From the IMG/VR virus record IMGVR_UViG_3300035156_000041, positions 22,315 through 86,314 of that record: a DNA stretch of 64,000 nt. One strand, 5' to 3'. Below are positions 8,859 to 45,004 of this stretch, one piece after another; within the stretch, counting starts at the first letter, position 1, and every line of letters starts with the position of its first letter. The stretch is from a virus. The position numbers and the translations under genes were made by a program. The notes beneath the pieces are model-generated. The model made no database searches, had not been told where the DNA came from, and saw only the letters and a program-made list of their open reading frames with translations.

Positions 8859-9073
8859 GCTGCTTCCTTCACGTCAGTTTTGCCACCTTTGATAACAACC
8901 ATAAGAGGCTCTTTGACCTTGATAGCTGTAAGATGCCCGTACACGGTGGTTCGGAACAGTGTTACATCGTTCTCTGTGACGCCTTCAGGCTCGATTCCGA
9001 TGACGCTAGTAATATGGTGAAGCTTATTATCCATATCTTTGTAGTAGGCTGAAACTTTTGCTGTGTGAGACAT
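8855..9073 (-). CDS. hypothetical protein
   Basis: TAAGGA RBS; first gene after the leftward promoters. Confidence 0.7.
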   Translation of the reverse strand: MSHTAKVSAYYKDMDNKLHHITSVIGIEPEGVTENDVTLFRTTVYGHLTAIKVKEPLMVVIKGGKTDVKEAA

Positions 9074-9103
9074 GACGTTCCTTACGTTGTGAGTAGTAAG
9101 GCT

Positions 9104-9132
9104 ATTGTGAAGGAATTTTGAGAGCCTGTCAA
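9104..9132 (-). promoter_or_regulatory. sigma70-like promoter
   Basis: TTGACA-17bp-CACAAT. Confidence 0.6.
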
Positions 9133-9177
9133 GCGGTTATTTCTTGAGAGGAAGGCTCGTCAGCAAGACAAGTACTT

Positions 9178-9206
9178 ATTATAGTACGAAGTGTGCCTGT
9201 TGTCAA
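9178..9206 (-). promoter_or_regulatory. consensus sigma70 promoter
   Basis: TTGACA-17bp-TATAAT. Confidence 0.85.
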
Positions 9207-9254
9207 GATATTTCGAGTTGTCTTGGTAGAGTGATAACACATAATAAATTTAAC

Positions 9255-9283
9255 TTGACTTTTGGCACATCTTATGCTATCAT
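9255..9283 (+). promoter_or_regulatory. promoter of the morphogenesis operon
   Basis: TTGACT-TTTGGCACATCTTATGC-TATCAT. Confidence 0.75.
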
Positions 9284-9320
9284 GGCGTTATTAGAGAAAT
9301 AAACATAACAAGGAGGCCAT

Positions 9321-9647
9321 TTGGGCGCACAATTAAAGCCAGTGGCTACAGAGGTTGGATTTGCCAGGCGGCAAAATCACCCTCTCTCCAAGCTTCTCAA
9401 AAGTTTGACAGCAGAGAGTCAAGATGCCGTGGATGTTCTTGTGGCTCTTACGAAATCCACGGATGAAAAGATCAAGCTTGCTGCTGCTACGAAGCTTCTG
9501 GAGTTTCAGGAGAGCGTTGCTAAGTCGATTGAGAATGACGCTCTTATGCGCGTTATGGCTAACGCTAAGTATGGCGGGCCAAAAGAGTTGGCTGAAGGTG
9601 AAGATGAGACGGTTTTGATAGATTACACTGTTCAAGACCCGGAGTAA
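9321..9647 (+). CDS. putative terminase small subunit
   Basis: AGGAGG RBS and TTG start; helical ~110 aa; first gene of the late operon upstream of terL. Confidence 0.55.
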   Translation: MGAQLKPVATEVGFARRQNHPLSKLLKSLTAESQDAVDVLVALTKSTDEKIKLAAATKLLEFQESVAKSIENDALMRVMANAKYGGPKELAEGEDETVLIDYTVQDPE

Positions 9648-9654
9648 AAGTTTA

Positions 9655-9730
9655 GCCGCCGTAGCTCAGTTGGCAGAGCGCCAGATTTGTAATCTGGATG
9701 TCAGGGATTCGATTTCTCTCGGCGGCACCA
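9655..9730 (+). tRNA. tRNA-Thr (anticodon UGU)
   Basis: 76-nt cloverleaf: GCCGCCG/CGGCGGC acceptor stem, D arm TAGCTCAGTTGGCAGAGC, CCAGA-TTTGTAA-TCTGG anticodon arm, TTCGA T-loop, encoded CCA. Confidence 0.95.
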
Positions 9731-9768
9731 GAATTAGCCGTGTACCGGCACAACTAGAGACGAAAACT

Positions 9769-10311
9769 ATGAAAACTCTGGATAAAGAAGTACAAATTGC
9801 AATTATCAACGAAGCTGGCAGTACGTATAGGAATCACTTGTTAGGTTTGACTAAGCAGTCCAGTGACACGAAGGCGTGCATTCAAGCAGCAACACTCGCT
9901 GCACAAGGCTTTATTGACATGTTCAGTAAGAACCTCACCAGTACGTGGAAGATTGATCCAAATGGCAATGTAACAGCCGAGAATATTAAAATTGGTAATT
10001 TGTCCACTATTTCGGCTACTTATGGCGGCTCTAAGAGTATGACAGTCACTTTATACAAATGGGCGCTGACACAACCTAGTGTACCTGAATTTTGTGTCGT
10101 TCAGTGGGAGTCAAACACCATTATGAAAGGCAGTAAACTAACTGGTTGGTCTTCTGTTGAACCGGGCAAAGGTAGTTTTGGCAATGCTGGTGAAACACTG
10201 TTTGAGCTAAAAGTGAATGTTTCTGCACCAGATAATGAAATCTACACTGCTGTTGATTTCAAAGACTACAAAATACAAAGTATTGCCTACAATGGCAAGC
10301 AAGGAATCTGA
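9769..10311 (+). CDS. hypothetical protein containing a tail-fibre-like segment
   Basis: Start moved to ATG 9769 because the upstream part overlaps the tRNA; contains NIKIGNLSTISATYG. Confidence 0.6.
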   Translation: MKTLDKEVQIAIINEAGSTYRNHLLGLTKQSSDTKACIQAATLAAQGFIDMFSKNLTSTWKIDPNGNVTAENIKIGNLSTISATYGGSKSMTVTLYKWALTQPSVPEFCVVQWESNTIMKGSKLTGWSSVEPGKGSFGNAGETLFELKVNVSAPDNEIYTAVDFKDYKIQSIAYNGKQGI

Positions 10312-10312
10312 A

Positions 10313-10562
10313 GGCAGCTACCTGAAGACGATAGCCGTACTCTGTAAGGCTCGGCAGAGGAAATTTACACGGGGGTATGAGTCCCAATGAGAGTAATTTA
10401 AGAATTTGCTTTTCGGGGCTAGCAGGAACAAGTGGCTAGTCGGTAAAGAGCAATGTGTGGAGAGGCCCGCAGTATGGTGGGCATGTTGCATTAGCATAGG
10501 CAGAGTAGCTGTGCAGCACGATTACGTATCAGGCGGGGCATCCTTAATGGGTGTATCCCGCT
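10313..10562 (+). ncRNA. candidate structured non-coding RNA
   Basis: Closing helix GCAGCTAC-CTG/CAG-A-GTAGCTGT, several internal stems and a trailing hairpin; no ORF. Confidence 0.5.
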
Positions 10563-10613
10563 GTAGTTGTTTCTAAGAGGTGGATTACCTCGCTAATTAT
10601 AAATGAGGAATTC

Positions 10614-12044
10614 ATGGCAAAAATTAAAAAACAAAAGTTTTCACCCTCTAGTGAGAAACAGCGACTAGTCTTGATTGAAGATGATGTTGACATCTTGCTC
10701 ACAGGCGGCGGCGCTGGCTCTGGAAAAAGTTTCCTTGCGTTACTTAAAGCCGTTGGCCTCTGCATGGTAGACAGCGCAGCAAAAGTCATGATCTTGCGGC
10801 TATCCTACCCGATGCTGAAAGACCTTATCAGTGCGTCTAAACAGATTTATCCTCATTTTGGCGGAGAGTATAAGACCCAAGCCCGTACGTGGGTGTTTCC
10901 TAACGGCACTGAGATTGACTTTAAAGCTATGCCACGAGACTTGTACGAAGTCCAGGGGTGGGAGAGGACCACATATATCGTAGATGAAGCCGCTGAGTTT
11001 CAATTGACAGATATCCTAGCAATTCTAAGCCGTCTCAGGAGTGCTACGTACAAAGGTAAGAAGAGTTTGTTGCTCACGTGCAACCCTTCTAAAACATCTT
11101 ACCTCTTAGACTGGGTTCAGTTCTCATTGGATCAAGAGGGCATTCCCTTGCCCGGCACTGAGGATCGAGTCCGTTACTTCGTTGTACAAAATAGCCACGT
11201 CAAATGGGCTGACAGTGCAGATGAGTTATACGAGAAGTATGGGGCAGGCTTAAAACTAGGCATTGAGTTTGTGCCGCTGAAAATGAAATTCATCCCTATG
11301 TTGTGTTATGACAACAAAGTGTTGATGAAAGCTGACCCTGGCTACCCAGGCCGCTTGATGTCGCAGCCCCGTGTAAATCAACTTCGTCTGCTCTACGGCT
11401 CTTGGTATGCTGCTGTTGAGGGTAGTTCGATGGTCACGGAGGATATGTTTGAGATTGTCGAGCATCCACCAATTAACCCAATCGCAAAGCTACGAGGCTG
11501 GGACATGGCTGCGTCCATCCCTAATGAGGCCAACAACTTTCGTTGTGATTGGACCGCTGGCGTGCTAATGTCAAAAGATGCCTTCGGTAATTTCTATATT
11601 GAAGATGTAGAAAGGTTTCAAAAACAAATTGATGGAGTGTTGAAGGGAATTCGGGACACAGCATGGCAAGATGGTTTGGAAATTACCCAAGTAATCCCAT
11701 GTGACCCCGCACAGGCTGGCCTAGTAGCCAATCGATTCTACACGACATTCTTAGCTGAGGGCGGTGTTACGACGCGGACAGAGAAGGCCAATCCCCACGC
11801 TAACAAGGCTACCCGTTTTGGACCATTTGCAAGTGTTGCCGCCAATGGAGCTATAAAATTAGTCCGTGGAGATTGGAACCGTGCATACTTAGATGAAGTT
11901 TGTTTCTTTACGGGTAAAAAGGGAGACACAGATGACCAAGCTGACGCGACTAGCACTACCTTCAACCAGCTTGCACGCCAAATGATTATCCCCACATTTT
12001 CTCTTTCGGCCTTTACTAACCCCAGCCCTGTGCCTACGATTTAG
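10614..12044 (+). CDS. terL: terminase large subunit
   Basis: GGGAGSGKS Walker A, YIVDEAAEF Walker B, TCNP coupling motif, GWDMA and DDQADA nuclease motifs; GAGG RBS before ATG 10614. Confidence 0.95.
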   Translation: MAKIKKQKFSPSSEKQRLVLIEDDVDILLTGGGAGSGKSFLALLKAVGLCMVDSAAKVMILRLSYPMLKDLISASKQIYPHFGGEYKTQARTWVFPNGTEIDFKAMPRDLYEVQGWERTTYIVDEAAEFQLTDILAILSRLRSATYKGKKSLLLTCNPSKTSYLLDWVQFSLDQEGIPLPGTEDRVRYFVVQNSHVKWADSADELYEKYGAGLKLGIEFVPLKMKFIPMLCYDNKVLMKADPGYPGRLMSQPRVNQLRLLYGSWYAAVEGSSMVTEDMFEIVEHPPINPIAKLRGWDMAASIPNEANNFRCDWTAGVLMSKDAFGNFYIEDVERFQKQIDGVLKGIRDTAWQDGLEITQVIPCDPAQAGLVANRFYTTFLAEGGVTTRTEKANPHANKATRFGPFASVAANGAIKLVRGDWNRAYLDEVCFFTGKKGDTDDQADATSTTFNQLARQMIIPTFSLSAFTNPSPVPTI

Positions 12045-12065: not shown

Positions 12066-12094
12066 TTGACAAACAACACACACCGTGCTACAAT
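12066..12094 (+). promoter_or_regulatory. promoter upstream of portal
   Basis: TTGACA-17bp-TACAAT, extended TG. Confidence 0.75.
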
Positions 12095-15497: not shown

Positions 15498-16532
15498 ATG
15501 CTGGTTCGTAGCCCCCTTAATAATTTTGATGTCGTTGACCTGACATCCGCTGTACGCAATCTACCTATTCAATATGGCACCTATAACATGATGGGTATTT
15601 TTGAAGAGGAAGGTGTCGCTTCTGATACCGTCATGTTTGAAGAAACCACTTTGAATGGTGCTCTTATTCTTGACCGTGTTCGCGGTGAAAAGAATAACGT
15701 GAATACTGACGGTGTTCGTAAACTGCACACATTCCCTATTCCTCACTTCCCGCTCGATGACCATATCTCGCCTAAAGACTTGGCGCAGAAGTCGGCCTAT
15801 GATAACTTCAATGAAATCGAACAACTGGATGCTGTCCGTGCTCGCAAAATGCTGCGTATGCGTCAGAACCACGATTGGACGTTGAACGCTGCACGTGCTC
15901 AAGCGCTGTTCTCGGGCACAGCGTATGCTCCAAACGGCACGATTTCCATGAACTGGTTCCAAGAATTTAACGTTACTCAGACATCGGTAGACTTTGCGCT
16001 TGGCACTCCTGGCACTGAAGTACTGTCGAAAATTGAGTTGGTGATTCAAGCAACCCATGACGGTATGGGCGGTAACGGTGTCTTTAGTGGCATTATTGCA
16101 CCTGTCAGTACCGGCTTCTTTAACAAACTGATTACGCACGCTAGCGTAAAAGCTGCATGGGTTTACGCTCAGCAAAACGCAGTTGGTTTTGACCCTATTC
16201 GCGGTCGTCTGGCTGACGGTAATTCGGTTATGCCCAACGGTCGTTCGTTCTTTTTCGGTGGTATTACCTTCCGCGAAGTTCGTGACTCGTATAACGGTGT
16301 TTCGATTACCACCGCTAACGAAGGCGTTGCTGTGCCACAAGGTTCGGGCATGTTCAAAACGTACTTTGCTCCAGCAGAGCGTTTCGGTCTGGTCAATACC
16401 CAAGGCGAGAAAATGTACGCTTTTGAAGAGGCTGCAACTAACGGCACCAAGATCGACATCGAAACAGAATCGAATCATATTAGCTGCCTGACCCGTCCTC
16501 AAGCGGTTATTCGTCTGTTTTCTAGCAACTAA
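15498..16532 (+). CDS. major capsid protein (lambda gpE-like family)
   Basis: 344 aa; IPHFPLDD, TYFAPA..VNT.G, ETESN..C..RPQAVI; strong codon bias; followed by terminator. Confidence 0.93.
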   Translation: MLVRSPLNNFDVVDLTSAVRNLPIQYGTYNMMGIFEEEGVASDTVMFEETTLNGALILDRVRGEKNNVNTDGVRKLHTFPIPHFPLDDHISPKDLAQKSAYDNFNEIEQLDAVRARKMLRMRQNHDWTLNAARAQALFSGTAYAPNGTISMNWFQEFNVTQTSVDFALGTPGTEVLSKIELVIQATHDGMGGNGVFSGIIAPVSTGFFNKLITHASVKAAWVYAQQNAVGFDPIRGRLADGNSVMPNGRSFFFGGITFREVRDSYNGVSITTANEGVAVPQGSGMFKTYFAPAERFGLVNTQGEKMYAFEEAATNGTKIDIETESNHISCLTRPQAVIRLFSSN

Positions 16533-44334: not shown

Positions 44335-44558
44335 AGACTCTTATCGTCTGTGTAGCGTTGCTGCTGAGCGGCTGTACGACTGTGCTGCCTGTGGCTAAGA
44401 CTCCATTGCCAACAGAGTTTATGCAACCTTGTGCGCCTCTTGTTATGCTGCAAGGAACAACTGGTGCTGACTTGTTGGCTAACATAACGCAAAACAGCGC
44501 TATCTTCTGGGCCTGTAAAGACTCAAAAGACGCGCTGATAAAAGCAATTAGTAAGTGA
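44331..44558 (+). CDS. o-spanin lipoprotein (Rz1-like)
   Basis: Lipobox LLSGC, Pro-rich, two Cys. Confidence 0.8.
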   Translation: MKTLIVCVALLLSGCTTVLPVAKTPLPTEFMQPCAPLVMLQGTTGADLLANITQNSAIFWACKDSKDALIKAISK

Positions 44559-44602
44559 AGATTTCCGTCTGGTAGACGATGCTATCGCGTGATAGCTTTA
44601 TG

Positions 44603-44636
44603 CCCTCTAACCCTTCACAGGGCCGAGGGCTTTTTT
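44603..44636 (+). terminator. terminator at the convergence of the two arms
   Basis: GCCCTC..CCCT/AGGG..GAGGGC then TTTTTT. Confidence 0.8.
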
Positions 44637-44641
44637 ACGTC

Positions 44642-45004
44642 TCAACCAATCTCGTTATCAAGCTGCGAATATAACTCACCCTTCTCCACAGTCTTGCTAA
44701 CCTTCTCCGCAGCACGAGCAGCAAAGTAAGATTTAACCCCGCCCGCTTTGTAGTTGGACCCTTTCACACAAGCTTTGCAAGCCAATGCAATATCTGTTTG
44801 GTATGCTTTAATTTCTCGTACCAATGCTGACTTGTTTTCTTCAACATGCTCTTTAATAGCCAATTGCAAGTTCTTAATCTTCTCAAGAGTCTCTTGCACA
44901 AACGTATCAGCAGCCATGAATTCCTTCATAACTTCTTTGGACTCTGCGAGTGCCAGAAAAAGTGGCACGACTTCTTTATTGTAAGACTTCAACAGTTCAC
45001 TCAT
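44642..45004 (-). CDS. hypothetical coiled-coil protein
   Basis: GAGG RBS. Confidence 0.7.
   Translation of the reverse strand: MSELLKSYNKEVVPLFLALAESKEVMKEFMAADTFVQETLEKIKNLQLAIKEHVEENKSALVREIKAYQTDIALACKACVKGSNYKAGGVKSYFAARAAEKVSKTVEKGELYSQLDNEIG

Follow-up and report, generated by a model that had tools for sequence, protein, structure and literature searches.

The 302-nt noncoding gap before terL of an uncultured phage: most probably a regulatory spacer of an ordinary kind

Why does a phage keep some 300 nt of noncoding DNA directly before its terminase gene (terL), and is that stretch a structured RNA in its own right? We addressed this question in a window of 64,000 nt (bases 22315-86314 of an IMG/VR phage record of 86,314 bp with direct terminal repeats). 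A sequence-only reading had noticed an ORF-less gap of about 300 nt before terL and had proposed that it holds a novel multi-stem noncoding RNA (ncRNA) or a switch controlling terminase expression. The gap itself is real on direct reading: the upstream ORF stops at 10309-10311, and terL starts with an ATG at 10614, preceded by the Shine-Dalgarno (SD) sequence GAGGA at 10605-10609. The 302 nt in between (10312-10613) are by the ORF list the largest noncoding stretch in the plus-strand structural operon. The features of the locus are:

9255..9283, plus strand: sigma70-like promoter, TTGACT-17-TATCAT with TG (promoter scan)
9321-9647, plus strand: ORF of 108 aa
9655..9730, plus strand: tRNA-Thr (UGU) (ARAGORN; Rfam tRNA, 69.4 bits)
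9769 (ATG)..10311, plus strand: fibre-like ORF of 180 aa, family unassigned, with the gap as its 3′ flank
10312..10613, plus strand: noncoding gap, 302 nt (direct reading; ORF check)
10314..10512, plus strand: multi-stem core with closing helix 10314-24/10501-12, overall at chance level
10406-53 (nested with 10417-41), plus strand: hairpin inside the core
10465-82, plus strand: hairpin inside the core
10532..10574, plus strand: terminator-like or attenuator-like hairpin (10532-62) with tail UGUAGUUGUUUCU (z = -3.29, 0/200 shuffles)
10580..10615, plus strand: hairpin over the SD and start codon, 12 bp, -10.4 kcal/mol (folding, z = -1.64)
10614..12044, plus strand: terL, 476 aa (Pfam Terminase_6N/6C; phrog_979)

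The promoter scan found no sigma70-like promoter on the plus strand between 9283 and terL, and the one at 9255..9283 is the sole one upstream of terL; the portal gene, 3′ of terL, has a strong promoter of its own at 12066. Several plain identities for the gap were considered and rejected. An intron of group I or an interrupted gene does not fit, as terL is complete (the alignment with TerL of relatives begins at residue 1) and the 180-aa ORF has the same end point as its homologues. ORFs of 20-59 aa occur in the gap, none with an SD or a good start, which speaks against a small protein gene; no tRNA-model match was obtained in the gap with ARAGORN or Rfam, which removes a decayed tRNA array; and tblastx against the upstream regions of relatives gave nothing that would mark a remnant of a homing-endonuclease gene. 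Neither direct repeats longer than 10 nt within the gap nor a second copy of it in the 86-kb phage genome were found.

We then asked whether the gap belongs to a known RNA family. Searching Rfam 15 over 9000-11500 on both strands (E <= 10) returned nothing beyond tRNA-Thr and a mirror match on it, and the whole window at gathering scores returned the tRNA alone, so that the covariance-model check put forward in the sequence-only reading yields no family match in the gap. The helices named there are all present by direct reading. The closing helix has its arms at 10314-24 (GCAGCTAC-CTG) and 10501-12 (CAGAGTAGCTGT); TTGCTTTT pairs with AAGAGCAA (10406-13/10446-53), GGCTAGC with GCTAGTC (10417-23/10435-41) and GCCCGC with GTGGGC (10465-70/10477-82); an AGCC/GGCT stem with a CTCTG loop is accompanied by CAGAG at 10355; CTGAAGA lies at 10322-28 and GAAA at 10360-63; and the last hairpin is located at 10532-62. 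The segment GCAGCUAC (10314-21) has two possible partners, GUAGCUGU (10505-12), which gives the closing helix, and the near-repeat GUAGUUGU (10564-71), which is used in the MFE structure of 306 nt; either choice leaves the terminator-like stem at 10532-62 untouched.

A likeness to the hammerhead core had also been suggested, given CUGAAGA and GAAA 31 nt apart and beside a helix. The layout is not that of a hammerhead ribozyme: 10329-10359 form no helix adjacent to both motifs and hence no stem II between them, there is no NUH to link stem III to stem I, the would-be stem I has its second strand 105 nt beyond stem III, and no Rfam hammerhead match was observed at E <= 10.

Folding energies were compared with those of dinucleotide shuffles (n = 200 for the element and core tests). 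The whole gap folds more stably than shuffles on the plus strand (306 nt: z = -2.65; 302 nt: z = -2.1) and no better than shuffles on the minus strand (z = -0.70 and -0.73, respectively), and the plus strand has an excess of G (GC skew up to +0.30). This strand preference, together with the G.U pairs, suggests an element that works as RNA rather than as DNA. Most of the signal comes from the 3′ half of the gap (200-nt windows from 10400 and 10500: z = -2.55 and -3.0; 10300-10499: z = -0.55). Within the core (10312-10515), the MFE was -65.1 against -58.6 ± 4.1 in shuffles (z = -1.59), with 13 of 200 shuffles equally stable; its ensemble is ill-defined (MFE frequency 0.0016), and the centroid retains just the closing helix and the 10465-82 hairpin. 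The 5′ part (10312-72), which carries the proposed pseudoknot and the hammerhead-like motifs, has z = +0.63, and the H-type pseudoknot thus finds no support. Among the single elements, the AAATTTAC/GTAATTT hairpin (10360-402, z = -0.45) and the 10465-82 hairpin (z = -1.55) are within the range of shuffles, the nested hairpin at 10406-53 is mildly beyond it (z = -2.26), and the hairpin at 10532-62 is the sole element clearly beyond it (z = -3.29, with none of 200 shuffles as stable). The comparison with shuffles that had been asked of the multi-stem RNA is therefore passed by the last hairpin, mildly by 10406-53, and failed by the core and the 5′ part.

To place these values in the genome, energies of all 200-nt windows on both strands were regressed on composition and ranked (n = 3446). 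Those of the gap rank 123-152 and are no outliers. The most over-stable windows are at 44437-44736 of the window analysed (minus strand) and at 16151-16400 of the genome (minus strand, outside that window), with z = -4.3 and -4.6; both are far stronger than the gap.

The functional part of the gap would be its 3′ third, where two hairpins precede terL. The first (10532-62, 52 nt before terL) is GC-rich, as intrinsic terminators are, with 12 bp, three G.U pairs, a 2-nt bulge and an energy of -18.4 kcal/mol; because of the three G.U pairs it is specific to the sense RNA. Its tail UGUAGUUGUUUCU has U at 8 of 13 positions in an interrupted run. The site is absent from the list of our terminator scan, which asks for five T in eight, and the broken U-run probably explains the absence. 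In the second hairpin (10580-10615), 10580-92 pair with the terL SD (10605-09) and with the AU of its start codon; taken alone, the stability of this hairpin is not significant (z = -1.64), and an upstream GAGG could compete for its CCUC strand. No alternative anti-terminator pairing was seen by eye, upstream segments matching the terminator arms over 5 bp at most. A riboswitch or a transcription attenuator was rejected, Rfam showing no aptamer and inspection by eye no mutually exclusive pairing. The proposed switch controlling terminase expression survives in part: control is plausible given the stable hairpin with its U-rich tail, the hairpin over SD and AUG, the lack of an own terL promoter and the terminator-like sites of relatives described below, but switching pairings were not found by eye.

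We consider a regulatory spacer of an ordinary kind the most likely identity of the gap, in preference to a novel structured RNA. The specific form that we prefer, a 3′-UTR and leader in which TerL is throttled jointly by two hairpins, one leaky and terminator-like and the other over SD and AUG, has in our judgement about an even chance of being right. The anatomy, the folding energies, the strand bias, the missing terL promoter and the equivalent gaps of relatives are observations; termination, read-through and translational damping we infer as follows. One transcript from the 9255 promoter would carry the 108-aa ORF, tRNA-Thr, the 180-aa ORF, the gap and terL, the gap serving as 3′-UTR of the 180-aa ORF and as leader of terL. 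The 10532-62 hairpin with its interrupted U-tail would act as a leaky intrinsic terminator, as a stabiliser of the 3′ end of the upstream message, or as both; with leaky termination, just a fraction of transcripts would reach terL, and there the 10580-10615 hairpin would hide the SD and the start codon and reduce translation. Both hairpins would keep TerL, which is needed in small amounts, below the upstream genes, with the portal and later genes on promoters of their own. The 5′ two-thirds (10312-10530) would be a lineage-specific spacer that arrived with the 180-aa ORF, and its helices may be the chance yield of a G-rich sequence of 200 nt.

Such a mechanism has precedents. Leaky intrinsic terminators and premature termination occur in 5′-UTRs of virulent phages, structured RNAs of less than 250 nt can arise from such termination, and the downstream gene then needs read-through (Putzeys et al. 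2024, PMC10914365). The gap resembles these cases in having a stable hairpin and a U-rich tail, both untranslated and shortly ahead of a gene, and differs in that its promoter lies 1.3 kb upstream, its U-tract is interrupted and its 3′ end is predicted. Pairing of the terL SD and start codon likewise recalls SD-sequestering leader hairpins (translational operators and RNA thermometers), although the stability of the terL hairpin is within that of shuffles.

The position beside the terminase gene raises the alternative that the gap acts as DNA, as a pac or cos packaging site. It lies directly upstream of terL, and the direct terminal repeat of the record is uninformative on the true genome ends. 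Strand bias and a lack of repeats weaken this alternative: neither direct repeats of more than 10 nt nor arrays of binding-site-like motifs are present, and the hairpins depend on G.U pairs, their folding being much poorer on the minus strand. Given also that relatives with 69-82% identical TerL show no significant match to the gap, we regard a packaging site as very improbable.

To see what relatives hold at this position, we searched with TerL and obtained eight viral and two metagenome loci (69-86% identity, near-identical records excluded); no TerL locus was found in genome contigs. The gap has no significant match in relatives with 69-82% identical TerL (blastn, nhmmer), in the whole records of three relatives, or in phage GenBank records (blastn); three exact patterns from it are absent from viral contigs; and scans with motifs from the relatives' gaps returned known contigs or chance matches only. 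No homologue of the gap was thus found in the eight viral loci, the two metagenome loci (one of which has upstream sequence) or the genome collection, a set that leaves out the two near relatives in the TerL 90% cluster (TerL > 90% identical), P0006 (an 87,245-bp IMG contig) and P0007 (Logan contigs). Profile searches were not significant either: a profile of the L006 and L007 gaps matched the window with E = 0.78 in a 2-kb target, and one of L003 and L013 matched 10520-10578 with E = 15 genome-wide (about 0.03 if the syntenic 300 nt alone are counted). With the core fold at z = -1.59 and Rfam empty at E <= 10, the novel multi-stem ncRNA is unsupported.

The relatives retain the tRNA locus some 2 kb upstream, and in each reachable one a homing-endonuclease-type gene abuts or overlaps the start of terL; the phage of the window has none there. 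The genes before terL are:

L006:1652-3004 (also in L004): 450-aa protein, phrog_681 endonuclease with sub-threshold DUF723/CapR-like Pfam matches
L003:1560-2999: 479-aa DUF723 protein
L007:2253-3032 (also in L008): 259-aa T5orf172 protein
L013:1390-2106: 238-aa AP2-domain protein

The site directly upstream of terL is a homing-endonuclease hotspot, and the layout fits the reported clustering of homing-endonuclease genes beside terL and other essential genes (PMC10055350). Every relative has a noncoding gap of its own as well (150-381 nt), between the tRNA(s) and small ORFs and the endonuclease gene. In four lineages these fold far more stably than shuffles on the plus strand (z = -5.0, -3.1, -3.7 and -7.3), the minus strand always being weaker, and the scan called plus-strand terminator-like sites in three of the four (L006, 1633-1668; L007, 2127-2158; L003, 1420-1448). 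The terminators of L006 and L007 have unrelated stems and similar tails, and the tail of L006, UUUUUGUUGUUUC, has GUUGUUUC in common with that of the window, UGUAGUUGUUUC. What is kept is the position, occupied by an untranslated stretch that is folded and bears a terminator, and neither the sequence nor any particular multi-stem fold.

Several features of the relatives' gaps are of interest in themselves. Those of L006 (1474-1760) and L007 (1984-2252) are 77% identical and have a common hairpin, GUGGCGAA...AGAUAGCCAC, with a compensatory change (CUUAGG/CCUAAG vs. CUGAGG/CCUCAG), while their terminator stems are wholly different; as a candidate conserved structured leader this pair is superior to the gap of the window, the consensus fold resting on two sequences and being too weak for model building. 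In L003 (1470-1540) and L013 (1290-1370) an imperfect hairpin of great length, with the common motif CTAAGAAGATTTATTAA as its 3′ arm, stands directly ahead of the SD of an endonuclease gene, the two genes being unrelated. This hairpin may serve as a backbone leader or be processed in the manner of RNase III sites. The window carries CTAAGAGGTGGATTACC at the matching place (10573-10589). The tRNA content also varies, with three adjacent tRNAs in L006 (779-1012), a single tRNA-Thr in the window and a tRNA-Ser in its place in L013.

Such variability suits another reading, in which the gap is a functionless recombination spacer in a hypervariable tRNA-terL hotspot and its hairpins are incidental. 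The region from tRNA to terL differs in each relative (endonuclease genes, small ORFs and gaps), the core fold is at chance level, and the neighbouring 180-aa ORF appears to have a mosaic boundary. That ORF has no Pfam or PHROG family match, and among 5.8 billion proteins it has just two homologues (49% and 41% identical), each encoded on a short Logan contig; all three sequences agree over their first 22 residues, and two of the three over a C-terminal ...SIAYNGK motif. Such a pattern could reflect a recombination boundary, or a conserved anchor beside a middle part that diversifies. A scan with the alignment of the ORF gave no match in contigs from viruses, metagenomes or genomes, and a 965-aa protein in the relative G003 (L010/L011) contains two repeats that the ORF weakly matches (24-30% identity). 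Against a functionless spacer stand the 10532-62 hairpin (z = -3.29) and the strand bias, and the strongly folded gap that all relatives keep at this position, with a scan-called terminator-like site in three of four lineages. Phage genomes, moreover, seldom retain 300 nt of junk within an operon. We think it unlikely that the gap has no function.

There remains the reading closest to the original proposal, that the gap yields a discrete, stable and functional ncRNA of about 200-260 nt, cut from the polycistronic transcript or its 3′-UTR, with ends guarded by the closing helix and the 3′ hairpin. The nearest cultured phages are Pseudomonas Nankokuvirus and Pakpunavirus (TerL 36-37% identical, with 36% for Nankokuvirus), which have the same order as the window: tRNAs, a small head-fibre-like ORF, terL and portal. 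This synteny also counts in favour of the preferred leader reading. One phage that shows it, PAK_P3, makes two abundant late RNAs in the tRNA/terL region, ncRNA1 of about 210 nt and ncRNA2 of about 120 nt, processed and with no start sites of their own (PMC10914365), and by analogy a processed ncRNA is conceivable in the gap. Like the gap, the PAK_P3 ncRNAs are noncoding, highly foldable and without a promoter of their own, in a neighbourhood of divergent promoters, small ORFs, tRNAs, a fibre-like ORF, terL and portal; unlike the gap, which lies directly before terL and is known from sequence alone, they lie upstream of or between the tRNAs. They are absent from Rfam, and blastn-short between them and the gap gave words of 7-10 nt only, with no similarity.

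Two side observations concern PAK_P3 itself. Its ncRNA2 (L016:2808-2927), inspected by eye, has a 7-bp terminal stem with a GGAGGUUCGAUUCCUC arm beside the 3′ strand, a tRNA-like frame around a large insert that neither ARAGORN nor the Rfam tRNA model calls. Its gp164 (L016:3200-4018), annotated as terminase large subunit, is a 272-aa paralogue comprising the ATPase domain only (phrog_979 positions 155-393) and lies upstream of the real terL.

A discrete ncRNA draws further on the plus-strand folding bias and G excess of the gap, on the closing helix that survives in the centroid, and on the gap being the largest in the operon. The core fold, however, is within shuffles with an MFE frequency of 0.0016, the gap is no genome-wide outlier, and neither Rfam, the PAK_P3 ncRNAs nor relatives with 69-82% identical TerL provide a significant match. 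On balance we see this reading as a minority prospect, about level with the functionless spacer. Its most elaborate form is more doubtful still: a lineage-specific processed ncRNA of about 200-260 nt, running from the 10314-24/10501-12 helix to 10532-62, would accumulate late and act in trans, as the PAK_P3 ncRNAs may, and the relatives' gaps, unlike it in sequence yet folded to an equal degree, would be fast-evolving counterparts within one class of terminase-operon RNA.

If the preferred reading, a leaky terminator-like hairpin and an SD-covering hairpin before terL, is true, the gap would be a routine case of a phage holding terminase expression low, with little wider consequence. For this uncultured clade, the stretch from the tRNA locus to terL always has a strongly folded, sense-biased noncoding segment beside a homing-endonuclease hotspot, and it is a reasonable place to look for phage RNAs derived from 3′-UTRs or leaders.
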